Shown here: positions 5,371 to 36,800 of the stretch, in pieces
Layout: each line of letters begins with the position of its first letter
How positions within the stretch are numbered: the stretch's first letter is position 1
From: an uncultured Oscillospiraceae bacterium
GTDB taxonomy: Bacteria > Bacillota > Clostridia > Peptostreptococcales > Anaerovoracaceae
Assembly (NCBI GenBank): GCA_964485605.1
Contig: CAZALQ010000001.1
Coordinates: forward strand, 604-64,603
DNA length: 64,000 nt
Direction of reading: 5' to 3'
Made by a program: the position numbers and the translations under genes
Notes under the pieces: generated by a model
What the model saw: the letters and a program-made list of their open reading frames with translations, nothing else
Told to the model about the DNA's origin: nothing
Database searches by the model: none

Positions 5371-5374
5371 AAAA

Positions 5375-5421
5375 TCTCCAGATAAAACCGAAGCTGTCTT
5401 ATCTGGAGAAACTTATTTTTT
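5375..5421. terminator. Intrinsic terminator between convergent genes
   Basis: tctccagataa...ttatctggaga forms an 11-bp stem, followed by aacttatttttt. Confidence 0.6.
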
Positions 5422-5470
5422 GCTATGTCACATTTTTAGGCTATTTTTCTATCTAAAATGTAACTATAAA

Positions 5471-6034: not shown

Positions 6035-6148
6035 ATATCGTGTCTTTTATACTGCTATCATCTACAAGCGTTATCTCCTTTACCGGTTCTTCTTTAACAA
6101 CGGTTAATTGTATGTAAAAAAAGACCCAAGAGATTAAATTATCACTTC

Positions 6149-6424
6149 CTATTTCGATTCTCTGGCTATCGGAATGAGCGCTGTTATATCTATTTGTATA
6201 ATCTCTGTGTCTTTATATTTTGGATTCAAACTTGGGAATATTGATCCGTATTCGACATGACCATCTTCTTTTGAGACGTATAATGCTACATCCGAATCGC
6301 CCATACCAAAACCATAAAAATCACCTAAGTCAAAGCATTTAGAATGTGGTTCCAAGTCACCCCATCCGTCAGTCTTTCTCGAATGCTCTACAGCCATTTT
6401 TAGGGCAGTTAAAACATCAATCAT
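6149..6424 (-). CDS. Hypothetical 91-aa protein (small, possibly immunity-like)
   Basis: Good RBS (gggagg, 9 nt upstream). It lies 12 nt downstream of the stop of the SIMPL gene. Confidence 0.45.
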   Translation of the reverse strand: MIDVLTALKMAVEHSRKTDGWGDLEPHSKCFDLGDFYGFGMGDSDVALYVSKEDGHVEYGSIFPSLNPKYKDTEIIQIDITALIPIARESK

Positions 6425-6438
6425 AAAGCATGTCCTCC

Positions 6439-7077: not shown

Positions 7078-7091
7078 TTCTTTTTCTCCTT

Positions 7092-7147
7092 ATAAAAAAT
7101 GACTGTGATAGATTTCTCTACCCCAGTCATTGTAAATTTTACGATTA
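7092..7147 (-). terminator. TAATCGTA box + hairpin + U-tract (attenuator-like element, minus-strand sense) upstream of the SIMPL gene
   Basis: The minus strand reads TAATCGTA-aaatttaca-ATGACTG(18-nt loop)CAGTCAT-TTTTTTAT. RBS aaggag and the ATG at 7077 follow directly. Confidence 0.5.
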
Positions 7148-7204
7148 CTGTCTCCTTGAATCTTAGTTAAGCATCTCAATACTTTCCTAATTGCGCTACC
7201 ATTT

Positions 7205-8365: not shown

Positions 8366-8397
8366 GAAATTCACCTCCAATAGAAGCCTTGTAATTT

Positions 8398-8613
8398 TTA
8401 CGATGCGCCTTTTTCTACCCTGAAGTCTGTATCAACAAAGGATCCCTTTCCATCCCTTTCTACAAAGTACATTACAACCGCATAAGCAGTGTTATCTATA
8501 TATTCTTTTCTGTAGTCCGGATGAAGGAAACAAAGCCTTCTTACGAGCCTATCAAAAAGCTCCTCTTCTGTTCTTGCTATAGATATGACATTGTCGTAAG
8601 TGATCTTGTACAT
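8398..8613 (-). CDS. Hypothetical 71-aa protein
   Basis: RBS ggagag. Codirectional with and tightly packed against the 386-aa gene. Confidence 0.4.
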   Translation of the reverse strand: MYKITYDNVISIARTEEELFDRLVRRLCFLHPDYRKEYIDNTAYAVVMYFVERDGKGSFVDTDFRVEKGAS

Positions 8614-8715
8614 AGCTTTCTCTCCGAGATTATTTCTGCTCTCAAAAGAAATTATATCACATGATTTCCATATTCATCTATATGGTGTCCCCTGAATAAC
8701 TATATTGATCAGTTC

Positions 8716-10731
8716 TTACCCGGCATTCTCTTCTTCGCTCTCATTTAGTTCACCAAACTTTGGTTCTTCAACCGTATCAAGGAGATAGTTCGCTATTTTC
8801 CTTGCTTTCTCATACATTTCCCTATTCTCCATTATGAGACCTATCATCCTGTTTCCACCAGACTGACGATTTCCGACGATATCCCCTCCGCCTCTTAAAT
8901 CAAGATCTTTTTCAGCGAGGTAGAACCCATCTCCTGACTCGCAAAGAGCCTTGAGTCTTGGGTTTTCCTCTCCGCCTTGGGAAATAAGGACACAGTAGGT
9001 TTGGATATTGCTTCTTCCTACCCTACCCCTTAACTGGTGAAGCTGCGAAAGTCCGAATCTTTCTGCATTTTCTATGACCATCACCGTGGCATTTGGGTTG
9101 TTTATACCGACTTCAACGACAGTGGTGCAAAGTAGCACGTCCACATCTCCATCTTTAAACCTCTGCATCACTGCGTCTATATCTTCCTTTTTATCTCTAC
9201 CTGTAAGAGTCTCGATCTTCACTCCATATGGGTCCAGGAGACCGTGATATACTCCGGAAGCTTCTTCTATAGATAAGACGCCATCCATGCTGTCGTTATC
9301 CTCTATCATCGGGCACACTATATACGCCTGATGCCCGGCTTGTACTTGCTTACAGATAAAACGGGCAGTCCTTTCTCTTGCAGTCATACCTCCTTGAGCT
9401 TTTGCAACTCCAGTCAAGATCGGAAGCCTACCTTTTGGCATCGAGTGTATCTCGTACTGCTGAATGTTTCCATGAAGAACTGCCGTAAGGGTTTTGGGGA
9501 TCGGTGTGGCAGTAAGCATAAGGCTGTGACATCCAGGCTGACCTTTATTTATGAGCTTATCCTTCTGCTCTACGCCGAATCTTTGCTCCTCATCTATAAC
9601 AGCAAGCCTTAGATCCTTATAGATAACATCGTCAGAAATGAGGCTGTGGGTTCCTGTAACGATCCTTGCTGCGCCTGACCTTATTTCTTCAAGTACTTTC
9701 TTTTTCTCTTTTCCTTTTGTATCAGAAGCAAGGAATGCTATATGGATGCCAAGAGGCTCAAACAGTTCTTTAAAATCGCTGAAATGCTGCTTGGCAAGTG
9801 CAGAGGTCGGTGCCATGACCACGGCCTGTCCCCCTCCTCCTATAATGTCGGCTACAACAAGCTGGCAAAGGAAGGTCTTGCCGGCGCCTACATTCGCAAG
9901 CACAATCCCGTTAAGTCTTCTACCACTCTGGATAAGTTCTTCTATTTCCTTTAAGCATTTTGCCTGCCCTTCAGTTGGTTCAAAACCTGACTCCTTAAGG
10001 ACCTTATCCTTTAAGGCCTTTGTCGTGATCTGGAAGGGACTGTACACTGCAGCATTTCTTGAAGATCTTTCGACCTTGTAAGCAAAGTTTATGAACTCGT
10101 AAAGCTGCAGCTGCTCTTTTGCAGCGCTTGCCTCCATGATAGTCTTTGGAAAATGTAAATTTCTGTACATATCCTCTATAGATAAGATCTTGAATCCTTC
10201 TCTCGTCTTAGCTGTAAAAAGTTCCGGAGGAACGCACCTCATTTCCCAAGCCTTTTTGATCTTATCTATAAGATATTCTTCTGACATACCGGGTACTTTA
10301 GGGTAAACAGGTTTCACCGGCGGCATGGATCCGGAAAGACCTATTGCCACCGGGCTCTGACATTCATAGGTCTGAAATGCGAAATTATAGTTAAGATGCC
10401 CTACAAGAATAAAGGTCTTACCTATATATTTTGATAGTTCTGCATGCTTATAGCTCTGGTTAAAGAAAGTAACAGTGATCTTCTCCTCAGTGTCTTTGAT
10501 CACTCCAAAAAACCTCAGCGTTGAGATCCTGCCGTAAGATTCTCTGATATTTTTTCCAATGACTTCTATGCAGCTCAGCTTATCTTCCGGTAGGACTCCT
10601 GTCAGTTTAGAAATATCTAAAAAACTCCGGGGTGTGAGTTTTTTGATTACATCTTCCGGAGTGAATACACCTTTCTTTGCAAACTGCTTTTCTTTTGCCG
10701 GCGTAACACCGATACTTTTCATTTCCATCAT
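8716..10731 (-). CDS. recG: RecG-family DNA helicase, divergent element-borne paralog
   Basis: N-terminal OB wedge region. Helicase motifs NVGAGKTF (I), VIDEEQRFGV (II), TATPIPKTL (III) and QLHQLRGRVGR (VI) occur in RecG order. Confidence 0.75.
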   Translation of the reverse strand: MMEMKSIGVTPAKEKQFAKKGVFTPEDVIKKLTPRSFLDISKLTGVLPEDKLSCIEVIGKNIRESYGRISTLRFFGVIKDTEEKITVTFFNQSYKHAELSKYIGKTFILVGHLNYNFAFQTYECQSPVAIGLSGSMPPVKPVYPKVPGMSEEYLIDKIKKAWEMRCVPPELFTAKTREGFKILSIEDMYRNLHFPKTIMEASAAKEQLQLYEFINFAYKVERSSRNAAVYSPFQITTKALKDKVLKESGFEPTEGQAKCLKEIEELIQSGRRLNGIVLANVGAGKTFLCQLVVADIIGGGGQAVVMAPTSALAKQHFSDFKELFEPLGIHIAFLASDTKGKEKKKVLEEIRSGAARIVTGTHSLISDDVIYKDLRLAVIDEEQRFGVEQKDKLINKGQPGCHSLMLTATPIPKTLTAVLHGNIQQYEIHSMPKGRLPILTGVAKAQGGMTARERTARFICKQVQAGHQAYIVCPMIEDNDSMDGVLSIEEASGVYHGLLDPYGVKIETLTGRDKKEDIDAVMQRFKDGDVDVLLCTTVVEVGINNPNATVMVIENAERFGLSQLHQLRGRVGRSNIQTYCVLISQGGEENPRLKALCESGDGFYLAEKDLDLRGGGDIVGNRQSGGNRMIGLIMENREMYEKARKIANYLLDTVEEPKFGELNESEEENAG

Positions 10732-10989
10732 TTATAGCGATATTTGTGATATCCCGCATATCCCCTTGTTCCCTGGGATCTCAACATCGATTACCTTATA
10801 TATAGCGTCGAGCCTGCTTCCTGCCTTGATCTGCACTGCTTCATTGCAGTCATCTTCTATCGGAAACTTGAAATTCGTCTTAACGCTATATATGTCCGAA
10901 TTAGCCTTTTTAGCAATCGCAAAAGTGATCTTCTTGACCTCATCATCTTTCGTCTTAACTCCAATTTTATAAAGTCTTAATATCTTCAT
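10732..10989 (-). CDS. Hypothetical 85-aa protein, abutting the recG-like start
   Basis: RBS gaaggag. Its stop codon directly abuts the helicase start codon. Confidence 0.45.
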   Translation of the reverse strand: MKILRLYKIGVKTKDDEVKKITFAIAKKANSDIYSVKTNFKFPIEDDCNEAVQIKAGSRLDAIYKVIDVEIPGNKGICGISQISL

Positions 10990-11076
10990 TTCTTCTCCTT
11001 CTCAAAAAATTTTAGTAGTGATAAAATAGTTTTGAGAACGAGCTTTTCATAAAAAGCTTCAACTATATCTCTTATA

Positions 11077-11104
11077 CCCTCGGCCGCCGAGGGCTTTTAA
11101 TTTT
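11077..11104. terminator. GC-rich hairpin (ccctcgg-ccg-ccgaggg) with T-rich flank
   Basis: 7-bp GC stem. The T-tract lies on the + side only, so its function for the minus-strand transcript is uncertain. Confidence 0.35.
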
Positions 11105-11143
11105 CCACATCCCAAATCATCGAAAACAAGTGTTTTCCACAGT

Positions 11144-11317
11144 TTAGGCCTCTCTCACCCTCACATACTGACTCCTATATCCCTTTTTTTCAGCGTGATA
11201 TATTGCTGAATGGATACTGTCTTCTGTTGTATGACACTTCTCAGCGAGCTCCTTCGCCGTATCTGCTATACATATTGGAAGCTCAAACCTATCTTTTGTA
11301 ACCTGCATCCATATCAT
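11144..11317 (-). CDS. Hypothetical 57-aa protein (below ORF-track cutoff), HTH-like
   Basis: Hand translation gives MIWMQVTKDRFELPICIADTAKELAEKCHTTEDSIHSAIYHAEKKGYRSQYVRVREA. Strong RBS ggaggga. Confidence 0.45.
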   Translation of the reverse strand: MIWMQVTKDRFELPICIADTAKELAEKCHTTEDSIHSAIYHAEKKGYRSQYVRVREA

Positions 11318-11320
11318 TTT

Positions 11321-11467
11321 TTACTCCCTCCCAAGAAGCTTTAGTCTGCTCGATGCAACCTTGCTATTGCATTCATCGCAGCATCTACCATCATTTTTTA
11401 GAGGCCATGGGTCGTTTCCATAGCCTTCATACTCTTTCCCGCAAATGCAGCATGCCCCTCTTTTCAT
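11321..11467 (-). CDS. Hypothetical 48-aa zinc-ribbon protein (below ORF-track cutoff)
   Basis: Hand translation gives MKRGACCICGKEYEGYGNDPWPLKNDGRCCDECNSKVASSRLKLLGRE, with CxxC...CxxC motifs. Its ATG overlaps the stop of the upstream gene (ATGA). Confidence 0.45.
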   Translation of the reverse strand: MKRGACCICGKEYEGYGNDPWPLKNDGRCCDECNSKVASSRLKLLGRE

Positions 11468-12513
11468 CTCTCTTTTCCCGCATCGATATCCGTTACCCAA
11501 GATTTCGGATCTTCAAGACTTGCATCCTCTCTTTTTTCTTTTCGTCTTTCTTTCCTTTTCTCCTCGTAATATTCTTCTGGCATTCCTTTTACAAAAGCAT
11601 TGACCCATATCACACGGCCTTTAGCTTCCTTATAAAACGGACTGTCTAATCTCCTAAGATGCCCGCGTACACTGTATACGCCCTTTTCGTTTGCCCCTTC
11701 TGACTCCGGAAGTTCTACCGCGTATATCTCTCCCGGATCTTCGCTTCTTTCTTTAAGAAGCCTAAATGCAATTACCTTATTACCTTCTTCATCTCTTAAA
11801 GACGATGCTTTAATGAACCTATCGCCTTTTGGATCCTTGTTGGCCATATAAAGGAAGTCATTCGCGTTTCTAAACACGGTCCTGATCTTTTCTGCCTGCA
11901 TAAGGAAGACCTCTTTCATGCTCATGTTTTGATTCTCAAGACTTTCTTCGTATGTCTCTTCTTGTATCAGATCGCCAAAGACCCTTTTTCTTGCTGCACA
12001 TTGCAATTTCCAGTTGAGCTTCGGGGAAAACCCGTACCACTCTTCCAATGTCGGAAGATCAGCTATTTTGATCTTTCCATCCTTTTCTTTGAAAGAAAAA
12101 GCAACTGTTGTTCTGGTCTTAAACTCCGGTCTTGATCTCATGAGATCAAGCTGTTCTTTAAGGAACCTATCAGTTATCGTGTCAGCCATAATAGGTGTGT
12201 TATATGCCTTTGCAAATGAGTGCTCATCCATTTCGCGCTTTGTGTCCTCATAAAAAGAGAGCTGCTGCGACTTATCTATCCTGTAAAAGACAATGTCGTT
12301 TTTCTGCTTGGTCACCTTAACGCTTATCGGAAGAGGATCCGGAGCAAGGTTTAGTTGCACCTTGCTGTAAAAGAGCGGAAGTTTTCCCTTGATATTCTTT
12401 ATACACCACTCATTTAATCGTTTTGCTGTTTCGATATCTATATCATATATAACCACTGCTTTATTACCTTTCAAAACCAAGGGACAGATACTGAAGACAT
12501 CTCTTTTGTTCAA
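11464..12513 (-). CDS. Hypothetical 349-aa protein with Lys/Glu-rich C-terminus
   Basis: Long ORF codirectional with its neighbours. The only available start is TTG with a poor RBS, so the start is uncertain. Confidence 0.55.
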   Translation of the reverse strand: MNKRDVFSICPLVLKGNKAVVIYDIDIETAKRLNEWCIKNIKGKLPLFYSKVQLNLAPDPLPISVKVTKQKNDIVFYRIDKSQQLSFYEDTKREMDEHSFAKAYNTPIMADTITDRFLKEQLDLMRSRPEFKTRTTVAFSFKEKDGKIKIADLPTLEEWYGFSPKLNWKLQCAARKRVFGDLIQEETYEESLENQNMSMKEVFLMQAEKIRTVFRNANDFLYMANKDPKGDRFIKASSLRDEEGNKVIAFRLLKERSEDPGEIYAVELPESEGANEKGVYSVRGHLRRLDSPFYKEAKGRVIWVNAFVKGMPEEYYEEKRKERRKEKREDASLEDPKSWVTDIDAGKER

Positions 12514-12585: not shown

Positions 12586-12628
12586 ATTATACTATATATT
12601 CTTATTTATGTAAATAATATATTTAGAT
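12586..12628 (-). promoter_or_regulatory. Minus-strand promoter (TTTACA-17-TATAAT) overlapped by 21-bp inverted-repeat operator
   Basis: -10 at 12586-12591 and -35 at 12609-12614 (reverse complement). The operator atgTAAATAataTATTTAGAT at 12608-12628 differs by 1 nt from the copy at 52092-52112. Confidence 0.5.
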
Positions 12629-12707
12629 TAAATATATTTAGCCTATTCTTCGCCTTCCAAGGCAAACAAAAAATCGCCTATCTCAAGGCGATTGCTGTGA
12701 TGTAAAG

Positions 12708-13217
12708 TTACTTCTCCATGTTAATGCTTTTGATCAGCCCTCTTATGATATATCTCACGATCTGCTTTGCTATAAGCCACAAGACCAGAAAGCAAAGTCC
12801 CGCGATCAGAAGCCGAATCTCAGAAATAGGACCTCTGTATGTGAGAAGCAGCTCCATAGCAAGTGTAAAAGTGGCCATAAAGAAAACCTGCCTTCTTGCT
12901 GTTGCTGACTCAATACTTATTGTCATCTTTCTTGGTGGCTCCCCTTCTTCAAAAGGTGTTCCGTCTGTTCTTGCTCGTTCCCGTATTCTCCTATATTTTA
13001 ACGAGACATATCCTGCAACTATGCCGATATACGATGGCCCTAACAGATGAAGGCAATATCCGCCTATCCTCAGCTGAAGAAATGACAGTATTCCTTGCTC
13101 TAGCCAGATTACGACCATGAGCCCTGCCAGATATATAAGCACCGCTGTGGATGTTGCAGCCAACACTAGTATTGTTCCTTTTAGCTTAGGTCTTTTATTC
13201 AACTTTTGCTCCTGCAT
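12708..13217 (-). CDS. Hypothetical integral membrane protein (about 4 TM)
   Basis: 169 aa and hydrophobic. Overlaps the end of the upstream MBL gene by 23 nt. Confidence 0.5.
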   Translation of the reverse strand: MQEQKLNKRPKLKGTILVLAATSTAVLIYLAGLMVVIWLEQGILSFLQLRIGGYCLHLLGPSYIGIVAGYVSLKYRRIRERARTDGTPFEEGEPPRKMTISIESATARRQVFFMATFTLAMELLLTYRGPISEIRLLIAGLCFLVLWLIAKQIVRYIIRGLIKSINMEK

Positions 13218-14163
13218 CCTTCTCTGTTAGTTTCTGGTCTTTTAAGGCATTCGTTGTCACTGAATTTCCGTCCGTTGTAAATACTATGTCTCCTGACTTC
13301 CACGTGCCGTATACATTTCTATTCTTTGTGTACTTTATAGCATCTGCAAGCACTGTTGGGTGAGGATGATAATGATCATTGTTTGCGGCTGCCGATATGA
13401 CAAAGTACTCCATATGCTTAAATTCCTTAAGCAGCGAATTTGAAGTGTTGGATCCGTGATGTGCTGCTACTACAACTGTTGGATCAATATCATAGGCTGT
13501 AAGCTTTTGCTCCATATCGCTCTCCAAATCTCCGGTACAAAGGAAACTTACGTCCTTATATTTAAGGTACGTTACAACTGAATTGTTGTTTGGATTTTCG
13601 TTGTTATCCTCTATGTCGTAGATATTCAGAGCCGCTCCGTTAGACAGGTTTATGGTCATATCTCGGTCTTCCTCAACAGTTCCTCCGTCATTTATGGCTG
13701 CGTTCATGAAGTAATAAAAATACCCCTCATCGGACAAATCTCCGTAGATCGTATGTTTAACAGAGAAGTTTTCATATATCCTCTGAAGACCGCCTACATG
13801 ATCTTCATGACAATGAGTAGCAATGACATATTCGACTACTCCATCTGCTGCATATGGTCTGATTTTATCAGGAAGCACATCGGACCCTTCAAACGGGCCT
13901 CCATCTATAATGATCTGAGTGTCGCCCATAGATATAAGAACACAAAGACCCTGGCCTTGGTCTAGGATTGCATAAGTAAGTTCCCTTTCAACTGGACTGG
14001 AACCGGGATTATCTATATTATTGAATCCGCCCTGATCTATTTCTTCCTGCTGATTTTTGCTTTTGATCACAAGCACTGCGATTCCTGCAATTATAGATAA
14101 GATGAGAACGATTCCTATTATCTTAACTACAGGCCTTAACTTTCTTCTTTTCTTTCTTGCCAT
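13195..14163 (-). CDS. Membrane-anchored MBL-fold metallo-hydrolase (ComEC C-terminal-domain type)
   Basis: N-terminal KR-rich segment plus a single TM (IIGIVLILSIIAGIAVLVI). HxHxDH motif ATHCHEDHVGGL, plus a later AAHHGS. Confidence 0.7.
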   Translation of the reverse strand: MARKKRRKLRPVVKIIGIVLILSIIAGIAVLVIKSKNQQEEIDQGGFNNIDNPGSSPVERELTYAILDQGQGLCVLISMGDTQIIIDGGPFEGSDVLPDKIRPYAADGVVEYVIATHCHEDHVGGLQRIYENFSVKHTIYGDLSDEGYFYYFMNAAINDGGTVEEDRDMTINLSNGAALNIYDIEDNNENPNNNSVVTYLKYKDVSFLCTGDLESDMEQKLTAYDIDPTVVVAAHHGSNTSNSLLKEFKHMEYFVISAAANNDHYHPHPTVLADAIKYTKNRNVYGTWKSGDIVFTTDGNSVTTNALKDQKLTEKDAGAKVE

Positions 14164-14530
14164 ATCTTCTTATCTCTTTTTTAAAGTAGTCGATCTCTTT
14201 TCTTTTCAGCCCTGCGAGACAATACCCGTCCTCGTCCTTTGAAAGTTTCAGAAAGATCGCACTCCCAAAACAAAGCCCCGCGTCAAGAGGAAGGAATTCG
14301 GACACCCCTTTGTTATATTCCCCGCAACCATTATTCTTTGAGTAGTATACCACAAAGAACTCCAATGGCATTGCATCCGTATCATATATATAAGGAAAAG
14401 TTTCTATATCGTGTGAAAGTATCTGCCTTCCAAGATCTGAAAACTCTCCCCTGTATAGACCGTTGACCTGGATTTCATCGAGATTTTCTTCGGCAAACTC
14501 TCCGTTGGCTCTTGCGAGCAATATCTTCAT
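14123..14530 (-). CDS. Hypothetical 135-aa protein, DUF3846-like pattern
   Basis: Strong RBS aggagg. Length and pattern (MKILLAR...GSAIFLKLSKDEDGYCLAGLKRKEIDYF) recall DUF3846 proteins of mobile elements. Assignment is tentative. Confidence 0.4.
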   Translation of the reverse strand: MKILLARANGEFAEENLDEIQVNGLYRGEFSDLGRQILSHDIETFPYIYDTDAMPLEFFVVYYSKNNGCGEYNKGVSEFLPLDAGLCFGSAIFLKLSKDEDGYCLAGLKRKEIDYFKKEIRRYGKKEKKKVKACS

Positions 14531-14694
14531 GTGTATCTCCTCCTGTTATCTGTATTTTCTATGATAAATTATATGGATAAGATCAGAAAAATCTCCCGAA
14601 GTTCAGAGAATTTCTTCAAAAAATATAAAAAATCTAAATATTTCATTTATAATGTGAAATATAGGTAAGATCCGAAGTATACGGAGGCAATACA

Positions 14695-16527: not shown

Positions 16528-16579
16528 ATCTAAATATCTTATTTAGATTATTGACATTGTTTCTCCTTTGAGGTATAAT
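16528..16579 (+). promoter_or_regulatory. Operator inverted repeat + consensus sigma-A promoter
   Basis: ATCTAAATAtctTATTTAGAT (16528-16548) is followed by ta and then TTGACA (16551-16556), a 17-nt spacer and TATAAT (16574-16579). Confidence 0.65.
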
Positions 16580-17479: not shown

Positions 17480-17875
17480 ATGACAAACGAAGAGGAAGAA
17501 TTGGGTGAGGATCTAGGAGATTATGATCCAAAACAGCAAAAAAAGCTCAAAAAAAAGCAGAAGGCTGTCGAGAAACTTCGCAGACAGACAGACAAGAAAA
17601 TGCGAAAGCTCTCAAAAAAAGACTTTGAAAAAACAAAAAAAGGGTCCTTTTCCTTATTTGAAGAATCTCAGGAAACTGAGGAAGAAGTACGGCGAAGAAA
17701 ACTGTACGAAAGGATCAATGCAGACGGCTACTACAATGTGATCCATCCAATCGACTATGAAGAAAAACTAGAAAAAAGCAGACTTGGAATGTCAAAAACA
17801 AAGCTATTTGTTGCTTTGGCTCTTCTTGGTTCTGTTGCTCTTATAGTATTTGGTTTACTTTATATACTTAATTAA
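17480..17875 (+). CDS. Hypothetical Lys/Glu-rich protein with C-terminal TM anchor
   Basis: 131 aa with C-terminus LFVALALLGSVALIVFGLLYIL. Weak RBS. Confidence 0.4.
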   Translation: MTNEEEELGEDLGDYDPKQQKKLKKKQKAVEKLRRQTDKKMRKLSKKDFEKTKKGSFSLFEESQETEEEVRRRKLYERINADGYYNVIHPIDYEEKLEKSRLGMSKTKLFVALALLGSVALIVFGLLYILN

Positions 17876-17877
17876 TT

Positions 17878-20094
17878 ATGACCGTAGTATTCAGCAGAAA
17901 ATTTGAAGATATCGCAAGGATCACAGCGGGCCTTTGTGGTCTTCCTCTTGATGGCCGAAAATTGACTCTTTCGACAGTTGATAAAAAAATAGGTAAAGCC
18001 TTAAGTTACTATAAGGATTTCGGATACATCAGCCTATTTTCGGCAGTTATAAACCAAAAAATTGAAACTATATTTACCTGGGGAGACGATCTGTTTGAGA
18101 CCCACACCCTTTTTGATGAGAACAGAATTCCATTTCTTAAAAAGGTCTTGAAGGAATCGGAGCAGGCAGAGAATCTAAAAGGTATCTTTACCGGAAAGAT
18201 CGATGACCTGATTTTTGCTGGCAAATCCGAAGACAACGCATACTTTAAAGATGTGCTTACTCTTTACAATATTGAAAGACCCCTGATCCGTCTTTGCAAG
18301 ATAACGGAGTTTAGTGAAGAAGCTCTTAAGACCGCTTTTTCCTCCGGTCTTACAAGCGTAACATCATCTGAAATCGCTCTGGACAAAGCCGGGTGCTACA
18401 GAAGCGCTATAGATAAGATCGACATACGATTAAAAGGAACTGTTTCATCCGTCCTTCCGACGGCGGAGTATCCAGGAATAGAAACTCTATCCGCACTATC
18501 CTATATATATCAGCAAAATAAAAAAACCATAAGTAAGGCCTCTAATGACAGTACTTACAAAATTGCAGTTACCGGTAACTTTGCCGGAAGAAACTTCGTT
18601 CTTTCTTCCAAGCTTTCCTTTTCAAGTAAGGATTTAGCCGAAAGAGCCCTCAAAGACCTTCCTGCTGCTGCGGAAGTCATTAGTAAGGGCGGAAATACGA
18701 TTGAGAAAGAATTCCCAAAAGGGGCATTCACGAATTCCAGACTCCTTGTTGCAGCAAAAAAGGGACTTGGTTTTTCATCCGAGCAGACACTTGCAGCCCT
18801 ATCTTATCTATATAGCGGCGGATTTATAACCGACCCGCAGACAGAGTCCTCATTACTTCCAAAAAACAGTCGAAATGTACTCTTTGACAGACTTTCAGCT
18901 TTCAAAGAATCCTCCGTAGGTGATCTCCTTGCAGCTATGAAACTTCCTAACGCAAGAGATGAATACTTTTCGGAAAACGATACACATGGCATCATTATCA
19001 CAGAAAAAAAGCCTGTTATAAAAAACAAAGACGCAAAATCTATTTATAGACTTATTGTGACGGAACTTATAAAGGTCTATTATCCTCCAAGAGAAGAAAA
19101 AACATTTAAGATCACAGCAAAAGGAGGTGGCTATACCTTCTCAGGACGTGGAAAAAAACTAGTCCGTGCCGGTTTTTCTGAACTCGAAAACAGAAAACCT
19201 ATCAATGAAAATGTTCCTTTTGAAATAGAAAAAGGTAGTATGATCGCTCTAAGTTACCGTATTTCGGCTCCTGGGACCTCATCAACTCTTCCCGGTTTAT
19301 CAACAATGTCAAAATACGATTTTGGTCCCCTTCCCCTTTCCGAGCAAATAAGGATACTGTCCTCCTTAGGGCTTATCACAGTCACAAACGATAAGTACAG
19401 TATTGAAAAAAAGGCATACCCTATCCTCCGTATATTAAGACCGTGCAGCGGTCTTCTTGATGGCAAATTCATTCGTATACTCTGCTCAAACCTTGAAACG
19501 ATTTCAAACGACGATAAACAACGAAGAAAAGAAGCCGAAGATATAGTACTGTCTGATCTTGATGCCCTTATAGATTACTGGCAGAAGTCCATCCTTGAAG
19601 GACGGGCCGTAGAAGTCCCGGTACACTGCCCTGTTTGCTTATCTACGCTCAAAGAGTCCTCTGGAAGACTTCTATGTGATGATTGCGGTTTTGAAACTGA
19701 CCTGATTATCTCAGGTAGAACTATGAATATGCAAGAAATGGAGCATCTGTTCCAGGAGGGATCCACTCCCCTTATTGACGGATTCAACGGTGATTACCTT
19801 GCAAGACTTTATCTCTCGTCTGCAAAAGAGGTCTTTATTACAAGGGACTCCCAGTATTCATGCCCTGTATGCGGAGAAAAGATGCGGGTAAGAAAAAGTG
19901 ATCGTGCCTATGTTTGCAGCTGCGGATACGAATTAAGAAGGATCTATAAAGGCCATGAATTTACAAAAAAGGAACTTAGCACCCTTTTTACCACTCTTCA
20001 GCTGCCAAAAGTAAAGATAAATGAAGGAGGGGCAGCAAGAACAGTTACACTCATACTCGATAAAGGAAAGCAAGGAAGGATAACTGAGCTTTAG
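17878..20094 (+). CDS. Topoisomerase-IA (Topo III-like) homolog lacking catalytic residues; two C-terminal zinc ribbons
   Basis: GFITDPQTES occupies the place of the xITYPRTDS active-site motif (D319, codon 18832-18834). AGKSEDNA stands in place of the Toprim DxDxEG motif, and there is no N-terminal EKP motif. CPVCLS...CDDCGFE and CPVCGEK...CSCGYE form zinc ribbons. Confidence 0.7.
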   Translation: MTVVFSRKFEDIARITAGLCGLPLDGRKLTLSTVDKKIGKALSYYKDFGYISLFSAVINQKIETIFTWGDDLFETHTLFDENRIPFLKKVLKESEQAENLKGIFTGKIDDLIFAGKSEDNAYFKDVLTLYNIERPLIRLCKITEFSEEALKTAFSSGLTSVTSSEIALDKAGCYRSAIDKIDIRLKGTVSSVLPTAEYPGIETLSALSYIYQQNKKTISKASNDSTYKIAVTGNFAGRNFVLSSKLSFSSKDLAERALKDLPAAAEVISKGGNTIEKEFPKGAFTNSRLLVAAKKGLGFSSEQTLAALSYLYSGGFITDPQTESSLLPKNSRNVLFDRLSAFKESSVGDLLAAMKLPNARDEYFSENDTHGIIITEKKPVIKNKDAKSIYRLIVTELIKVYYPPREEKTFKITAKGGGYTFSGRGKKLVRAGFSELENRKPINENVPFEIEKGSMIALSYRISAPGTSSTLPGLSTMSKYDFGPLPLSEQIRILSSLGLITVTNDKYSIEKKAYPILRILRPCSGLLDGKFIRILCSNLETISNDDKQRRKEAEDIVLSDLDALIDYWQKSILEGRAVEVPVHCPVCLSTLKESSGRLLCDDCGFETDLIISGRTMNMQEMEHLFQEGSTPLIDGFNGDYLARLYLSSAKEVFITRDSQYSCPVCGEKMRVRKSDRAYVCSCGYELRRIYKGHEFTKKELSTLFTTLQLPKVKINEGGAARTVTLILDKGKQGRITEL

Positions 20095-20097
20095 TGT

Positions 20098-20251
20098 TTG
20101 ACTTAAAGTTAAATTCAGTGTAATATACCTATAGTTTATATTTTACTATTCTGGCGGCTTTAGCAAGCCGGATATCATCTGTTAAAAACAACTGTTAATC
20201 GTAGCACACCTTAAGGAAGGTATTTATACCTTTCTTGCGGTGTGTTTTTTT
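20098..20251 (+). promoter_or_regulatory. Module A: promoter TTGACT-17-TAATAT, conserved structured leader, intrinsic terminator
   Basis: -35 at 20098-20103 and -10 at 20121-20126. P1 hairpin CGGCTT/AAGCCG at 20155-20170. Conserved block GGATATCATCTGTTAAAAACAACTGTTAATCGTA at 20170-20203. Terminator at 20205-20251. Confidence 0.6.
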
Positions 20252-20282
20252 ATTTTGCTAATCGAGAATAGGAGGAAATGTA

Positions 20283-20594
20283 ATGCTCGAAATTAACCAA
20301 ATCTCCCTAACGGGAGAAATCGTCAGTGGCGAAAAAAACGACAAGGGTCTCTATCTTAAAGTCAGGCAAATGGTCGGAGGAAAGATGGAAACAATCTTCA
20401 CAGTCTTTGTTCCATCCAAAGCAAACCCAACCGCTCAGAACTTCAGGGAAAAGGACCTGGTACTCATCAACAACGGCCTTATCTATAGGAACGCAGAAGG
20501 TGAAGTCACCATCAGAGTCACCCGCTCTGACCAGCTTCAGATGATAAAGAAATGCCTTGATATGGGGCAGATCTCCGCAGAAGAAGTATTTTAA
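20283..20594 (+). CDS. Small OB-fold, SSB-like protein (candidate)
   Basis: 103 aa. The N-terminus INQISLTGEIV resembles the first SSB strand. RBS ggagg lies 7 nt upstream. Assignment is tentative. Confidence 0.4.
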   Translation: MLEINQISLTGEIVSGEKNDKGLYLKVRQMVGGKMETIFTVFVPSKANPTAQNFREKDLVLINNGLIYRNAEGEVTIRVTRSDQLQMIKKCLDMGQISAEEVF

Positions 20595-20608: not shown

Positions 20609-20661
20609 TGTTAATCGGAAAACAGATCGCAGCCATAAATGATTGGCGGCGTTTTTGTTTT
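20609..20661 (+). terminator. TGTTAATCGGA box + imperfect hairpin + T-tract between the OB-fold gene and the AAA gene
   Basis: cgcagcca-taaatgat-tggcggcg pairs at 7 of 8 positions and is followed by tttttgtttt. Confidence 0.4.
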
Positions 20662-24817: not shown

Positions 24818-24888
24818 TTTTATGTCAATCGTATTATTTTGCCAAAGGGAGATAAGCCTCCCTTTGGCAACGAAAAAGGAGATCCAAA

Positions 24889-25381: not shown

Positions 25382-25410
25382 CAGGCTGCTGATTGCAGCC
25401 TGTTTTTTTT
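25382..25410 (+). terminator. Intrinsic terminator
   Basis: caggctgc-tgatt-gcagcctg followed by T8. Confidence 0.8.
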
Positions 25411-25419: not shown

Positions 25420-25576
25420 TTGACATCTTTCCATAGATAAGATAATATATCTGTAGTTTATTTTTTTACATTCCATCAGCACACTATGTGCAAGGTGGAT
25501 ATTAGTCGTTAAAAAACATGTTAATCGTAATGCACAGTAAACAGGGCCTTTGGGTCCTGTTTCTGTGTATTTTTTT
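25420..25576 (+). promoter_or_regulatory. Module B: promoter TTGACA-17-TAATAT, conserved structured leader, intrinsic terminator
   Basis: -35 at 25420-25425 and -10 at 25443-25448. P1 is CCATC..GCACA-cta-TGTGC..GGTGG at 25473-25498. The block GGATATTAGTCGTTAAAAAACATGTTAATCGTA follows. Terminator at 25532-25576. Confidence 0.6.
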
Positions 25577-25598
25577 GTTAATCGCAAAGGAGGAAAAG

Positions 25599-25835: not shown

Positions 25836-25862
25836 TCTTTTTGTTATTTATCGTGTATAGGC

Positions 25863-25925
25863 AATCGCAATACGCACTTCTTATGCAGTAAAAGAAAAAA
25901 CTGCACGCACGGGAAGTGTTTTTTT
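25863..25925 (+). terminator. CAATCGCA box + bulged hairpin + T7
   Basis: cacttc..tgcag-loop-ctgca..gaagtg is followed by ttttttt. It lies between the 78-aa gene and the next gene. Confidence 0.4.
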
Positions 25926-30575: not shown

Positions 30576-30605
30576 ATGAGTCCTCTATTTGAGGGCTCAT
30601 TTTTT
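30576..30605 (+). terminator. Intrinsic terminator
   Basis: atgagtcctc-tattt-gagggctcat followed by ttttt. Confidence 0.7.
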
Positions 30606-32016
30606 ATATCTCGTATGTTGTTATTTCTTCACAATCCCCCTGGATGATGGCATTCCATATCATCCTTCTGCAGAATGCAATAGGATATTTGGGTTGACTT
30701 ATGTTTGCCGCCTCTTTATAAATTTCCTTTGTTCTCTCCATAAGGGTCATTATTGTTGGATTACCGGTAATGTAGTCTTTTGATATGAACTTTGATACCC
30801 CTCTTCTTATGTCTTCGCTTGATACAACAATATTCTCGTACTCTTGGCCTTTTCTGTCTGATAGCATTGATGTAAGTGCTGATTTAAACAATTCTGGGAA
30901 AGACTTATTAAAACCTTCAAGAGATGAGTATAAATCTTCATGCCCGGCATAAGTACATAATAGATCAACAGCAAGTTTTATTAATTTTTTGTTATTAAGG
31001 TACTCCTCAGGAATCTCATTGAATGAAGATATCTCAGAAAGAATTTCATCCTTCCCTCTCTCCTCTTTTGTTATAGTTTCGTTAGAATGAGAGATAGATT
31101 GTTTATTATATATACTGTTTTTTATAATATTATTATTTTTAGCTTCCGGAATTTGCGTTTCCGATGTTTGCACTTCCGTTTTTTGCGCTTCCGAAAAATC
31201 AACGCACGGTGACTCAGTTATATTAGAGCTTTCTTTTGAATCCTCATTTTGCGCTTCCGGAATTTGCGCTTCCGGAAAATCAACGCACGGTGATTTTATA
31301 ATATCCCCTTCTTTTTTATTCGGAATAACAGGGTTTTCGTTTATTGTATATAGACAGCTGCCGAATTTCCCGCCAGAGGTTGTTTGGGTAACGGTTATAA
31401 GTCCATATGAAGTAAGGGATTTCATATAAGTTCTATATGCACTGTCTGAAATATGAAGAAAATACAAAATATCCTTTTTCTTAGGAAAAGCTGTGTTACC
31501 GGATCCTGCAAATGAGCAAAAAAATGCATATAGTGCCTTTTCTTTCAGGTCTAGTCTGCTATCAATCATCACAGCTTTTGGAATGGTGCCATACCCTCCA
31601 GCTTTTATGCCCTCGGTCAGAACTCTGTCTTTATCGGCATGTAGGTTGTCATAAGAAAGTGTTTTGTATTTTTTGGGGCAAGAAATAAGAGTGTATATAT
31701 TCTTCTGAAATCCATGGCCATTACCGCCGAGATTTCTCTTTTCAACGGAGATATATCCCTCAGTTTCTAGGACCTTAAAATATTTAAAATATGTTTCTTT
31801 GTTTATCTTCAGATCATGGACTATCTTTTCCCAGCCAGGAAAAGCAGTGTTGCCAGATCCGGCATAAGAGTAAAAGTAAGCACATATCCCTTTAGAAGCA
31901 ATTGGAAGCTTATCGTCAATCATTATAAGTTTTGGGATAATGCCAAATCCTTTAAAATTGACCCCTTCTACCCGTAATTCATCTATAAAATTGTCGAAAA
32001 TGTCCATATTATTCAT
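30604..32016 (-). CDS. Rep-like protein with two tandem winged-HTH (HTH_36-like) repeats, repetitive linker and C-terminal domain
   Basis: The segments FGIIPKLIMIDDKLPIASKGICAYFYSYAGSGNTAFPGWEKI and YGTIPKAVMIDSRLDLKEKALYAFFCSFAGSGNTAFPKKKDI are duplicated. The start is uncertain: ATG at 32016 or 32007, with the listed TTG at 32064. Confidence 0.55.
   Translation of the reverse strand: MNNMDIFDNFIDELRVEGVNFKGFGIIPKLIMIDDKLPIASKGICAYFYSYAGSGNTAFPGWEKIVHDLKINKETYFKYFKVLETEGYISVEKRNLGGNGHGFQKNIYTLISCPKKYKTLSYDNLHADKDRVLTEGIKAGGYGTIPKAVMIDSRLDLKEKALYAFFCSFAGSGNTAFPKKKDILYFLHISDSAYRTYMKSLTSYGLITVTQTTSGGKFGSCLYTINENPVIPNKKEGDIIKSPCVDFPEAQIPEAQNEDSKESSNITESPCVDFSEAQKTEVQTSETQIPEAKNNNIIKNSIYNKQSISHSNETITKEERGKDEILSEISSFNEIPEEYLNNKKLIKLAVDLLCTYAGHEDLYSSLEGFNKSFPELFKSALTSMLSDRKGQEYENIVVSSEDIRRGVSKFISKDYITGNPTIMTLMERTKEIYKEAANISQPKYPIAFCRRMIWNAIIQGDCEEITTYEI
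31142..31293. repeat. Iteron-like direct repeats / TTCCGGAA palindromes inside the Rep-like gene
   Basis: The unit TTGCG(C/T)TTCCG(G)AA occurs at least 6 times. The 25-nt repeat cttccgAAAAATCAACGCACGGTGA at 31188-31212 recurs at 31269-31293. Confidence 0.6.
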
Positions 32017-32229
32017 CGGATAGTATTGACACTTTCGCCCCGATTTTCTATAATTGAGGTACAAAAAACCAGAGCGGTGAAGAGCCGCACATAAAATAAA
32101 TTGAATAACAAAGAATTTGGGAGAAGGAACAAGTTGCAGCTTGATCCTTTTTTCTTTGTCTTTAATGCATTTTAATCATAAAATCGGATAATTGTCAATA
32201 AAAAATCAAAATGTTCCTAATACCCGCAC

Positions 32230-33876: not shown

Positions 33877-35032
33877 AAAAGAAAATGCACATAGCGTTGT
33901 TGACGGTAGTGCTAGAAATACATCAGCTCGTTATATTAACAATGTGTTCAATCCTGGCGGAAACCAGGGCCAAACCAGTCAAAAAAAGAGCCTTTCAAGA
34001 TTTTATGATATGTCAATTGATGATATCACACCCAGGCCTATCAACAACTTCCGTCAGTATCAGATTGAAGAGTTAGCAGATACAATACATAGAGATCACG
34101 ACATTCTTCTCCACCCAATTACAATTATCAGACCATCATTCCTTTCTGAGGATAGCGATGTAATAAAAGCGTTTAAAGAAAAGAATGTTGATATTTCGAC
34201 TGTAAAATATATGATTGTAAGCGGCGAAAGAAGGTATCATGCGTGGCAGCTTTTAAGAGAAAGAGAAGCTAAGGCTATTGAGGAATCTGGAGCAAATAGG
34301 GGTAATAAGTTTGATTTTATTCCAGTCAAAGAGCTTACTTCTGATGACGCAGTAATAGAAGAACTTCTTTATGAAGATGCAAATAACTCTGCAAGAGAAT
34401 TATCGCCTCTAGAAGGGCTTCTTCACATTAAAAAGGTCATAGAAGAGGTGGTAACACCTGAAGACAAAGCCAGAGCTGTCCATGAAATGAAAGAGGCAGG
34501 TTATGACAAATATGCAGATATGGACATTCCTAAGGATATATATAAAGCAGCGAGAAAATTCAATCAAGCAAAGTTTTGTCACTATCATTTGACCAAAGAA
34601 ATGAAAGTCGAAAACTGGGGTTTTAAGAATGTTGAGTCGGATCTTAGCATTATTAATAAGTGTGTTCCAGAAGTAGTAGAAGCGATACTTAAAGAGGGAT
34701 TTGCAATACGTAATGCAAGACTTCTCACATCAATAGATGCGGATGCTCAAAGAAGGCTTCTCGCCCTTTGGAGAAGAGAGGGATTCACAGATTTTGATAA
34801 CGAAGTTAAGAAAGTTAGGTCCGCTGGAAAGGCAGAGTCGAAAAGAGAAGTAACAAAAAGTGTTGCAAAAAAGAAACTAAAAAGTCTTATTAAACAAGTA
34901 GAAAAGTATCAAAAGGAGTTTGAGAACCTTTCAGAAGAGATTTCAAAAGGAGGAAAGTCCTATACTGAGAACATCGTAGTCGTTATGAAAAGATGTAGAG
35001 AGTCATTAGAAAAAATAGAAAAAGAACAATAG
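33863..35032 (+). CDS. parB: ParB-like (ParB/Srx nuclease-fold) partition protein
   Basis: The motif IVSGERRYHAWQL is present. Located directly after parA. Confidence 0.7.
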   Translation: MEMSKKENAHSVVDGSARNTSARYINNVFNPGGNQGQTSQKKSLSRFYDMSIDDITPRPINNFRQYQIEELADTIHRDHDILLHPITIIRPSFLSEDSDVIKAFKEKNVDISTVKYMIVSGERRYHAWQLLREREAKAIEESGANRGNKFDFIPVKELTSDDAVIEELLYEDANNSARELSPLEGLLHIKKVIEEVVTPEDKARAVHEMKEAGYDKYADMDIPKDIYKAARKFNQAKFCHYHLTKEMKVENWGFKNVESDLSIINKCVPEVVEAILKEGFAIRNARLLTSIDADAQRRLLALWRREGFTDFDNEVKKVRSAGKAESKREVTKSVAKKKLKSLIKQVEKYQKEFENLSEEISKGGKSYTENIVVVMKRCRESLEKIEKEQ

Positions 35033-35041
35033 TTAAACGAG

Positions 35042-35068
35042 CCGCTCATTAATATTGAGCGGTTTTTT
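35042..35068 (+). terminator. Intrinsic terminator
   Basis: ccgctca-ttaatat-tgagcgg followed by tttttt. Confidence 0.8.
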
Positions 35069-35596: not shown

Positions 35597-35747
35597 TTGA
35601 CATACATTCATTTCGTGATATACTCAAGATACAGTTAATTGTTTTACATTCCGTTTGCATGTGCAGGACGGATATCATCTGTTAAAAATTTTGTTAATCG
35701 TAACACACTAAAGAAAGGTGCGAGCCTTTCTTCCAGTGTGTTTTTTT
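35597..35747 (+). promoter_or_regulatory. Module C: promoter TTGACA-16-TATACT (TG-extended), conserved structured leader, intrinsic terminator
   Basis: -35 at 35597-35602 and -10 at 35619-35624. P1 is CCGT..GCA-tg-TGC..ACGG at 35651-35671. The block GGATATCATCTGTTAAAAATTTTGTTAATCGTA lies at 35670-35703. The terminator at 35703-35747 has perfect stems. Confidence 0.65.
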
Positions 35748-35780
35748 ATTGTCTATTCGAAAACAGGAGGATTAATCGTT

Positions 35781-36800
35781 ATGACAGACAAGAAAAAACA
35801 GATTCGCTATGGCGAAAACTATGATGTGTTTTCACATCTCAGCAATGCTCAAAAAGAGGATGGGAAGCCAGCCTATGAAGTGTACCAAGTAGACGGTGTA
35901 CTTCAGACTTATGACTCGCCAGATGGAAAAGGAAGATTCCTTTATGTTCCAGTCTATACCATTGACGGCAACACTATGAAGGACTGGTTCCACACTGTGT
36001 TTAAAGATGGCCGTGTCGAGACCATAAGGCATACTGCTCCGGCTGTTTATGATCAAGATCGTAAGATATGGGTTGAACCGCCAGAGGTTGTAGAGGTAAG
36101 ACTTTATAAGAACATGGATGATGAACACTATCTTGCAAACGGTTTTGCTAAAGTGCAAATCGTCGAAGGAAGTAAATATCCAGAACTACCCTCGGCAGCA
36201 ACAATGGCATTTAAAAATGCTATGTCAAATGCAGGTTTTGGTGTCGATATAGACTGGGAGACAGTTTACAAGAATGCTCCGAAGTTCTTCCATGTAACCG
36301 AGTCTGACGAACCTGCTCTATATGTTCCGGTAAATACTACATCGCCAGGGACTAAAGCAGTTGAGTTTGATGAGAGTGCACACGAAATACCAATGGCGAG
36401 GACAGAAGAAAAGACAGTAAAGGAAAGTGTTTTAGAGGGGCAGACCTCTCTTGATCTTTCAGATCCCCTTCTTGCAGCATTGTCTTCTTCAGGGAAAGAG
36501 CATTCGATTTCGGAAGAAGAACTTGCAGGAACAAAAGGACCTACTGCGGCTTCTGAGACAGAAGAGAAAGCTGAGGTGCTTGGCACAAAAATGACGAAGG
36601 AAGATGCTCTTGATACAGTCTTCTTTGCAGTCAATAAACAGAACATGCTCATCTACAATAACAAAACATTCAGAGAAAATCTGGAGCAGTATCCTGAAGA
36701 TTTTAGGAGTCTTATTGAAATGATAGCTTTGAAGCAGGATATCTACAAAAGGTGGATCGCAAATGATGTTCTAGAGGCGGCTGAGGCACTGACAGCGTAG
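35781..36800 (+). CDS. Candidate Rad52/Sak-like single-strand annealing protein with acidic C-terminal tail
   Basis: The ATG at 35781 follows aggagg. AATMAFKNAMSNAGFGVDI resembles the Rad52-family A..A.KRA...FG.G motif. Assignment is tentative. Confidence 0.35.
   Translation: MTDKKKQIRYGENYDVFSHLSNAQKEDGKPAYEVYQVDGVLQTYDSPDGKGRFLYVPVYTIDGNTMKDWFHTVFKDGRVETIRHTAPAVYDQDRKIWVEPPEVVEVRLYKNMDDEHYLANGFAKVQIVEGSKYPELPSAATMAFKNAMSNAGFGVDIDWETVYKNAPKFFHVTESDEPALYVPVNTTSPGTKAVEFDESAHEIPMARTEEKTVKESVLEGQTSLDLSDPLLAALSSSGKEHSISEEELAGTKGPTAASETEEKAEVLGTKMTKEDALDTVFFAVNKQNMLIYNNKTFRENLEQYPEDFRSLIEMIALKQDIYKRWIANDVLEAAEALTA

Follow-up and report, generated by a model that had tools for sequence, protein, structure and literature searches.

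What controls transcription at the head of several operons of one conjugative plasmid is the question raised by the 64 kb stretch of DNA analysed here (positions 604 to 64,603 of contig CAZALQ010000001.1, hereafter the window). The window covers most of a ~79 kb plasmid-like conjugative element. At least four operons of this plasmid are headed by a common cassette made of a promoter, a leader RNA and a terminator. Copies A, B and C are located in the window and copy D lies outside it. Three paralogous modules heading operons in the same orientation had been proposed from a sequence-only reading of the window; all three were confirmed, both in position and in layout. Control of gene expression by a leader and its terminator is known. 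What is new is a variant that marks a plasmid regulon and matches no described RNA family.

In copies A, B and C, the elements follow the same order: a sigma-A-type promoter, a 5′ single-stranded box, a hairpin (P1), an unpaired block and a terminator followed by seven T residues (T7). The cassette is ~150 bp long with ~35% GC, and its promoters match 9-11 of the 12 consensus positions. The leader RNA, as predicted from promoter to terminator, is ~115 nt long. The features of the three copies are as follows.

20098-20251, plus strand: copy A, whole cassette
20098..20126, plus strand: copy A promoter, TTGACT-17-TAATAT
20130..20151, plus strand: copy A 5′ single-stranded box TATAGTTTATATTTTACTATTC, with the word AGTTTAT and the TTTTAC box, kept in four of four copies
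20150..20172, plus strand: copy A hairpin P1, from folding
20170..20203, plus strand: copy A unpaired block GGATATCATCTGTTAAAAACAACTGTTAATCGTA, with two GTTAA repeats and the terminal word TGTTAATCGTA, unpaired in folds with or without the terminator
20204..20251, plus strand: copy A terminator, a hairpin with the conserved foot CACAC...GTGTG, then T7 (20245-20251); -22 kcal/mol, with compensatory changes
20257..20275, plus strand: copy A second word GCTAATCG (20257-20264) and ribosome-binding site AGGAGG (20270-20275), with the ATG at 20283
25420-25576, plus strand: copy B, whole cassette
25420..25448, plus strand: copy B promoter, TTGACA-17-TAATAT
25452..25529, plus strand: copy B leader, with box (25452-25473), P1 (25472-25499) and block (25497-25529)
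25530..25576, plus strand: copy B terminator, then T7; -25.2 kcal/mol
25576..25593, plus strand: copy B second word TGTTAATCGCA (25576-25586) and AGGAGG (25588-25593), with the ATG at 25599
35597-35747, plus strand: copy C, whole cassette
35597..35624, plus strand: copy C promoter, TTGACA-16-TATACT, with TG upstream
35630..35702, plus strand: copy C leader, with box (35630-35651), P1 (35650-35672) and block (35670-35702)
35703..35747, plus strand: copy C terminator, then T7; -17.4 kcal/mol
35752..35783, plus strand: copy C degenerate word TCTATTCGAA, AGGAGG (35765-35770), ATTAATCG (35771-35778) and the ATG at 35781

All four copies are oriented as the genes they head. The copy A promoter begins 4 nt past the stop codon of the topoisomerase gene (20094), with no terminator in between, and the terminator ending operon A (25382-25402) is directly upstream of the copy B promoter. 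From the end of the T-run to AGGAGG, the distance is 11-18 nt, which corrects the 20-35 nt initially given between terminator and ribosome-binding site. The 5′ box has the consensus T(A/G/C)(T/C)AGTT(T/A)AT...TTTTAC(A)TTC, and the block, 33-34 nt long, the consensus GGATAT-N5-GTTAAAAA-N3/4-TGTTAATCGTA. The foot of the terminator (RCACAC...GUGUG) is conserved in sequence and immediately adjoins the block. Minimum free energies of the whole leaders range from -30.6 to -41.9 kcal/mol, and those of the terminator hairpins alone from -17 to -25 kcal/mol. No antisense promoter was found inside the cassettes, and reading of the leaders for a leader peptide revealed no start codon with a preceding ribosome-binding site.

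The relationship between the copies is visible in their sequences. The 19-mer GGATATCATCTGTTAAAAA is identical in A and C, in agreement with the sequence-only reading, according to which these two copies share the first 19 nt of the block; even at three mismatches, the chance expectation is 0.05 matches. Moreover, TGTTAATCGTA is identical in A, B and C. As an 11-mer with at most one mismatch, it gave 7 matches as compared to 1.04 ± 0.99 expected, a number reached in none of 100 shuffles. A covariance model derived from these three copies alone detected copy D with a score of 93.6 bits (E = 1.5e-19), thereby adding a fourth copy to the 'at least three' first counted. Copy D is at positions 13993-14120 of L015, corresponding approximately to window coordinate 68.5 kb, ~4.6 kb beyond the right end of the window. 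Searching the 64 kb window with the same model gave no copy beyond A, B and C.

The four copies were then compared for pairing; with at most four copies per lineage, the covariation values that follow are descriptive and not a formal test. Over the 25 modelled pairs, 96.9% of the cells are paired, a value that falls to 34-56% once the 3′ partners are shifted by 1-3 columns. Changes on both sides were observed in 8 of the 25 pairs, a value reached by only one of 500 shuffles. In P1, the 8 pairs are 100% paired across the four copies, with two pairs altered on both sides. Whereas the stem sequences drift, the unpaired block and the 5′ box are nearly invariant. Since the stems covary and the block does not vary, selection acts on pairing in both hairpins and on sequence in the unpaired parts. 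The description of the block as a conserved single-stranded segment between two variable hairpins thus holds, the hairpins being kept by compensatory changes. The stems also contain 12 G-U cells, each an A-C mismatch if read from the opposite strand. Therefore, the fold is specific to the sense strand, as fits an RNA. A near-identical plasmid from another sample (L026), in which cassettes A and B score as those of the window, added no variation. Two further pairings were tried and ruled out: a UUUUAC-GUUAAAA helix enclosing P1, because copy D carries an A to U change without compensating change, and a pairing of the A-rich part of the block with the U-run, because it is not kept in copies B to D.

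Folding of the leaders gave no sign of a built-in switch. Leaders truncated at the block end or at the terminator loop form only P1. For those truncated at the block end, z-scores of -0.1 to -1.5 show no gain in stability over shuffled sequence, and the leader folds contain no conserved partner for the 5′ arm of the terminator. Because no conserved structure competes with the terminator, regulation is not that of a self-contained switch.

Known RNA families were also considered. Over the whole window, Rfam 15 gave no match at gathering score, consistent with the earlier failure to recognise any family. At E values up to 10, the weak matches differ among A, B and C, belong to unrelated families and are all at or below 19 bits. 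The leaders have no multi-helix ligand-binding fold that would compete with the terminator in the manner of a riboswitch, only P1 being present upstream. A zipper-type attenuator is not formed either, as P1 is not extendable and the 5′ box is complementary to neither terminator arm in any copy. Twin-hexaloop hairpins, a RAT hairpin and a specifier/T-box sequence were sought without success in leaders A-C, and no ANTAR, PRD/RAT, T-box or NusG-paralogue (ops/LoaP) domain was matched by Pfam or NCBIfam in the plasmid open reading frames (ORFs) scanned; such a factor might instead be encoded by the host. With respect to nut sites, a box and a hairpin are present and the hairpin sequence varies between copies; small basic ORFs are present, none of them recognisably N-like. 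As concerns Frpo, in which a long hairpin of the transferred strand re-creates a duplex -35/-10, the DNA fold of 20060-20290 puts the -35 and -10 hexamers outside any long duplex. As concerns EGeRS2/Reg576, the -35 flank and the spacer are not conserved, and no ribbon-helix-helix protein was detected among the window ORFs. The short, AT-rich cassette with its sigma-A-type promoter departs from EGeRS1. Finally, conAn, one large RNA that works with the ConAn1 protein from the start of the conjugation operon, differs in size, copy number and position, our leader RNA being ~115 nt long and present in four copies, none of which heads the transfer-ATPase operon (43376 onward). The nut comparison aside, the membership tests that could be run were negative, and the cassette was assigned to none of these families.

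Among known systems, EGeRS1 and EGeRS2, the establishment gene regulatory sequences of conjugative Bacillus plasmids, are the closest concept, and lambda nut together with TRAP/HutP-type proteins, readers of unpaired repeats, the closest working analogies. EGeRS1 of pLS20 is a GC-rich, multi-branched structure of 420-750 bp, without constitutive sigma-A promoter, that blocks read-through in one orientation (PMC8708921, PMC6294495). EGeRS2 of p576 consists of a strong promoter, without terminator, between TTATCCCnnTTATCCC DNA operators that are recognised by a ribbon-helix-helix repressor; these dual heptamer operators are next to the -35 hexamer, sometimes also just past the start site, and the repressor gene is under the same control (PMC8708921, PMC6294495). 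As in both systems, several operons of one conjugative plasmid are each under a paralogous regulatory sequence, and copies within a plasmid are more alike than copies on related plasmids. In contrast, the present cassette combines a promoter, a small hairpin, an unpaired block and an intrinsic terminator, and shows no sequence similarity to either.

In the lambda nut site, boxA is accompanied by the boxB hairpin, which carries specificity and is conserved between nutL and nutR, and N, a small arginine-rich protein, acts processively, so that no site is needed at each terminator. Our cassettes resemble the N/nut system in that paralogous leader sites containing an unpaired box and a hairpin lie between strong promoters and terminators, and in that the site sequence is lineage-specific, as expected if it co-evolves with a cognate factor. 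They differ from it because the hairpin drifts while the unpaired block is conserved, and no N-like protein was found on the plasmid. Leaders controlled by TRAP, HutP or PyrR have alternative terminator and antiterminator folds, or a terminator melted by extended binding. With these, the cassettes share short unpaired repeated words near the leader terminator and, as for TRAP on trpG and trpP, further copies of the word beside ribosome-binding sites. However, there is no alternative fold, the words are different and no homologous protein is encoded on the plasmid. conAn2, a large RNA of the bipartite conAn antitermination system, and cATT, located in a 456-nt leader, each occur once, at the head of a conjugation operon of the pLS20 family (PMC8191782, PMC13401043). 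In cATT, segments complementary to the terminator extend a long central stem into an antiterminator (PMC13401043). Both are found in the same kind of mobile element as the cassettes, with a terminator before the first gene and terminators inside the operons. Nevertheless, size, copy number, position and fold are different, and our cassette has no terminator-complementary segments.

The terminal word of the block is not restricted to the leaders. Indeed, its TAATCG core is found again, in the sense orientation, in every gap from leader terminator to ribosome-binding site. This recurrence was not part of the sequence-only reading, nor were copy D and the related cassettes described below. The post-terminator words are the following.

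20257, plus strand: GCTAATCG, copy A
25577, plus strand: GTTAATCG, copy B
35771, plus strand: ATTAATCG, copy C
Copy D, sense strand: GCTAATCGTAA

The word is also found before hairpins inside operons A and B, and in a weaker form at one further position.

20609..20661, plus strand: operon A internal site, TGTTAATCGGA, hairpin 20628-20651 and TTTTTGTTTT (T-run), between the 103-aa and AAA ATPase genes
24823..24868, plus strand: operon A internal site, TGTCAATCGTA and hairpin 24841-24868 without T-run, between the vWA and 156-aa genes; -23.8 kcal/mol
25860..25925, plus strand: operon B internal site, GGCAATCGCA, hairpin 25875-25918 and T7, between the 78-aa and 400-aa genes
35032..35068, plus strand: weaker word match GTTAAACGA, terminator 35042-35062 and T6, at the 3′ end of the ParB-like gene

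The hairpin at 24841-24868 has 11 bp, is GC-rich and ends ~8 nt before the ribosome-binding site of the 156-aa gene; judging from its sequence, a role in RNA processing or stabilisation seems more plausible for the 24823-24868 site than one in termination. Over the 64 kb, nine of the 18 plus-strand [TC]AATCG sites fall within the ~700 nt of leaders and intergenic gaps: three precede leader terminators, three precede ribosome-binding sites and three precede internal hairpins. The operon-ending terminators (25382, 30578, 38499 and 41543) do not have the word.

Cassettes of the same kind are carried by related plasmids. The family is rare. The AAA ATPase and the 400-aa protein each have only 3-4 homologous clusters among 5.8 billion proteins; the primase has 48. 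One relative belongs to an Anaerovoracaceae metagenome-assembled genome. By reading intergenic gaps, we identified at least five related plasmid lineages with two to four cassettes, which have the same layout and head the same operons with a lineage-specific sequence. All the related plasmids examined carry such cassettes. Covariance model R1 gave no significant match on them, their sequences being too diverged. The cassettes have the following characteristics.

L009 / L020, four cassettes: covarying P1 basal stem (CTCAC/GTGAG, GCTTG/CGAGC, GCTTC/GAAGC, GCCC/GGGC), conserved apex GAAGCATTRCG
L009 / L020, words: TG(T/C)TAATTT adjoining the terminator in three of four, (T/A)AATTT before the ribosome-binding site
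L012, one cassette, cut by the contig end: like L009
L022, two cassettes: TAGTTATTT box, covarying P1, TTTAGTT repeats, terminator foot ACACAT...ATGTGT
L021, two cassettes: covarying P1, AAAATTA(G/C)TC, terminator
L024, two cassettes: start TATAGTTTAT, like window copy A
L010, two cassettes: shorter leader, no P1

A TAGTT word is present 5-19 nt past the -10 hexamer in the related plasmids too. In L009 and L012, TTAATTT replaces the terminal word at both places, ahead of the terminator and ahead of the ribosome-binding site. In the B-type operon, the terminator after the first small gene is kept in the relatives, and the local version of the word precedes each. Finally, the motif GTTWAW occurs in 16 leaders 23 times in sense and 3 times in antisense, as compared to 8.2 ± 2.7 in shuffled leaders. 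Copies are alike within a plasmid, while the same position differs between plasmids. To judge from the sequences, such likeness would be expected from sites co-evolving with a plasmid-specific reader, and gene conversion could contribute.

Two peculiarities of these plasmids were observed. At 14133-14343, L009 has an orphan cassette with promoter, P1, block and strong terminator but no gene of its own, directly before the next full cassette. It may be an independent small RNA gene, act as a decoy or represent a duplicate in decay. In L010, TTTTTAC, the perfect 14-bp palindrome CTGCACGTGTGCAG and a conserved tail occur at 14701, 14835, 20497 and 20599, two of them before a leader cassette and two before partition genes; these may act as DNA, in the role of operators or centromere repeats, and not as RNA hairpins. 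Searches further afield yielded no additional family member. The distant AAA-ATPase relatives L018 and L019 have no paralogous leaders. Public plasmid and phage records contain no DNA similar to the 20 kb region or to single cassettes, and an exact-pattern scan of the genome collection gave no match. The same scan gave 8 matches in viral contigs, all due to chance and inside coding sequence (VKKFVNR-type), and one in the Joint Genome Institute metagenomes, also a chance match, located at a gene start with 24 bits and lacking both hairpins.

From this anatomy and from the comparisons above, we infer conditional read-through, with the block as a putative binding platform, in line with what the sequence-only reading had proposed. 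We tentatively favour, at a little less than an even chance, a read-through regulon dependent on a trans-acting factor, probably a protein. The sigma-A-type promoter would fire a ~115 nt leader RNA with an unpaired AGUUUAU...UUUUAC box, P1 and a 33-34 nt block whose two GUUAA repeats end in UGUUAAUCGUA. The terminator, with its RCACAC...GUGUG foot and U7, adjoins this block and is followed by the second UAAUCG word and the ribosome-binding site. By default, most transcripts would end at the leader terminator, as suggested by the strength of the hairpin, the U7 run and the lack of a competing fold. Read-through would depend on a factor that acts in trans and reads the unpaired words, most likely an RNA-binding protein. 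By binding UGUUAAUCGUA, alongside the terminator's 5′ foot or on top of it, the reader would block closure of the hairpin. Because the word also stands before internal hairpins of operons A and B and beside ribosome-binding sites, a single reader could serve whole operons, perhaps acting also on translation or RNA processing. Because the word has the same version throughout a plasmid, UAAUCG in the window and UAAUUU on the Anaerovoracaceae plasmid, its reader is probably plasmid-encoded and co-evolving with its sites. The S1-domain protein (50820-52082) and several conserved proteins without family are candidates only. A more specific proposal, which we consider rather doubtful, is that the cassettes and their counterparts in other lineages form the RNA part of an antitermination system not yet described. 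Its protein part, encoded by the plasmid and without kinship to known antiterminators, would read the terminator-adjoining words and switch on a multi-operon DNA-metabolism regulon, for instance just after conjugative entry.

Several observations weigh against factor-dependent read-through. No plasmid ORF matches an antiterminator family (NusG/KOW, ANTAR, CAT/PRD, Q or N). The hairpin of the 24823 site has no T-run, so that not all word sites are terminators. When the three paralogs are left out, the association of [TC]AATCG with a following hairpin becomes marginal, with 3 of 15 sites as compared to ~1 expected. The paired change of the word at the terminator and at the ribosome-binding site is seen in essentially two lineages, and the copies within a plasmid are related by descent.

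Four other explanations have to be weighed. The terminated leaders may be three or four paralogous small RNAs of ~115 nt, with the block as seed or protein-binding region, the operons being expressed through a constitutive leak of the terminator. A conserved unpaired stretch, an A/U-rich flank and a terminator hairpin with U7 are indeed the typical layout of trans-acting small RNAs, compatible with the Hfq type, in which a stable terminated RNA binds Hfq and base-pairs with its mRNA targets, and the L009 orphan cassette without a gene of its own fits such a role. Nevertheless, the search for a complementary target or a trans-acting antisense RNA, which covered the window and flanking plasmid stretches of 4.8 kb and 10 kb, found none; the best duplexes, at about -20 kcal/mol, are at background level. 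The copies of the word at ribosome-binding sites and internal hairpins are the same sequence and not its complement, all cassettes but the orphan are 11-18 nt from a ribosome-binding site, and the lineage-dependent block would need a co-evolving target, of which none was seen. We therefore hold small RNAs to be unlikely. Alternatively, the block and the 5′ box would be DNA operators for a plasmid repressor, as in p576 EGeRS2/Reg576, relieved briefly after transfer, and the hairpins attenuators or insulators. Multi-operon establishment regulons with shared upstream sequences, strong promoters and direct-repeat operators are a precedent (PMC6294495, PMC8708921), and the block does contain the direct repeat GTTAA-N7/8-GTTAA. 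The spacing of this repeat is however 12 or 13 bp depending on the copy, 23 of the 26 GTTWAW occurrences are on the sense strand, and the word directly adjoins hairpins in eight places. In addition, conserved sequence starts near the predicted transcription start and extends downstream, leaving the -35 flank and spacer unconserved, and TAGTT at its variable distance from the -10 hexamer better fits an RNA than a promoter-fixed DNA element. Operators thus appear improbable.

In a third explanation, which we regard as at least as improbable as operators, the leader would act by itself, in the manner of the put, EAR or conAn2 antiterminator RNAs: it would modify RNA polymerase without a specific protein and allow it to pass leader and internal terminators. 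In phage HK022, paralogous put sites closely follow two strong promoters and precede terminators, and operons A and B do contain internal terminators. Yet known elements of this kind are strongly structured, with conserved stems and loops, whereas here there is one small hairpin and the conserved parts are unpaired. Moreover, a processive mechanism could dispense with the word at the hairpins further downstream, and no Rfam match was obtained. The last explanation, already put forward as an alternative in the sequence-only reading, is a site used as single-stranded DNA after transfer (a primase start, an HUH-enzyme site or a Frpo-like promoter). A hairpin beside a conserved unpaired stretch follows the logic of such sites, and the plasmid encodes a primase (36829-37899). 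The frequent G-U wobble pairs, the T7 run and then a ribosome-binding site after the second hairpin of each copy, the orientation of all four copies along the genes they head, and ordinary duplex-type -35 and -10 hexamers that form no hairpin promoter when folded as DNA argue against it, and we consider this explanation extremely unlikely.

The cassettes head operons of the plasmid with diverse contents. Copy A heads the 103-aa, AAA, vWA and 156-aa genes, copy B the 78-aa, 400-aa, YqaJ and RecD2 genes, copy C the 339-aa and primase genes, and copy D a membrane-protein gene beside the transfer region. The label 'establishment' for these operons is a guess. Besides the primase, DNA-metabolism genes of the plasmid code for a topoisomerase, an AAA ATPase with a vWA protein, a YqaJ exonuclease and a RecD2 helicase. 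Maintenance genes code for a DnaD/HTH_36-type initiator, whose gene contains probable iterons, a ParA-family ATPase and a weak ParB-like protein, and transfer genes for a VirB4-like ATPase and a coupling protein. The S1-domain protein and a sigma factor are possible regulators. Ten plasmid proteins have no Pfam or PHROG match. Structure prediction of the S1-domain protein gave a useless model, with a predicted local distance difference test score (pLDDT) of 32. For the 103-aa product of the first gene of operon A, earlier labelled an OB fold, the best structure matches are indeed single-stranded-DNA-binding OB folds, but with E of about 0.1 and a weak single-sequence prediction (pLDDT 62) the label stays tentative.

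Other features of the plasmid were recorded. The inverted repeat ATCTAAATA-N3-TATTTAGAT lies directly upstream of TATTGACAT at two promoters (16528-16548 and 52092-52112): the one at 16551, with 12 of 12 consensus positions, before the 203-aa, 131-aa and topoisomerase genes, and that of the sigma-factor gene. Related copies are found in the window at 12605-12639 and 14615-14649, and in L015 at about 12880-12905. This repeat looks like the shared repressor operator of a second regulon, distinct from the leader cassettes. Repeats of ~15 nt (TTTGCGCTTCCG-type) form two clusters at 31135-31304, inside the minus-strand initiator gene (30604-32064), and are probably replication-origin iterons. L009 has instead a Rep3 initiator with 22-nt iterons (L009 19734-20151). 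Because initiators and iterons differ, the replication module has been swapped between these relatives. At 61743-61901, a 9-nt periodic repeat codes for a Gly/Ser-rich linker in a 677-aa protein without family match, and a 1143-aa SpaA-domain protein is encoded just past the window, which suggests that the two may be surface adhesins of the mating apparatus. Positions 1-12500 of the window are cargo-like, with a URO-D-like protein, transporters, a MerR regulator and a RecG-like helicase; the same left stretch, as present in another sample (L013 11167-21167), runs on into an IS605-type TnpB and a restriction-modification pair. As compared to the 131-aa ORF at window 17480-17875, L026 encodes a 205-aa protein (5185-5802), and its AAA ATPase gene, as called, has 24 additional codons. 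Start sites or frameshifts may account for both differences.

In conjugative plasmids of gut Clostridia, the timing with which genes for replication, recombination and priming are expressed is poorly understood. The shared cassette sequence delimits a regulon on plasmids that encode mostly proteins without a family match, and the cassette is compact (~150 bp) and repeated, so that its logic is directly testable with reporter fusions. If the terminators merely leak at a fixed rate, the cassettes would be an unusual but ordinary means of insulating or tuning operons. If the proposed antitermination system is real, it would be a third type of plasmid establishment regulon. A cognate factor, if it exists, would likely be a new kind of RNA-binding transcription regulator, and the words of the different lineages would be natural variants of its specificity.

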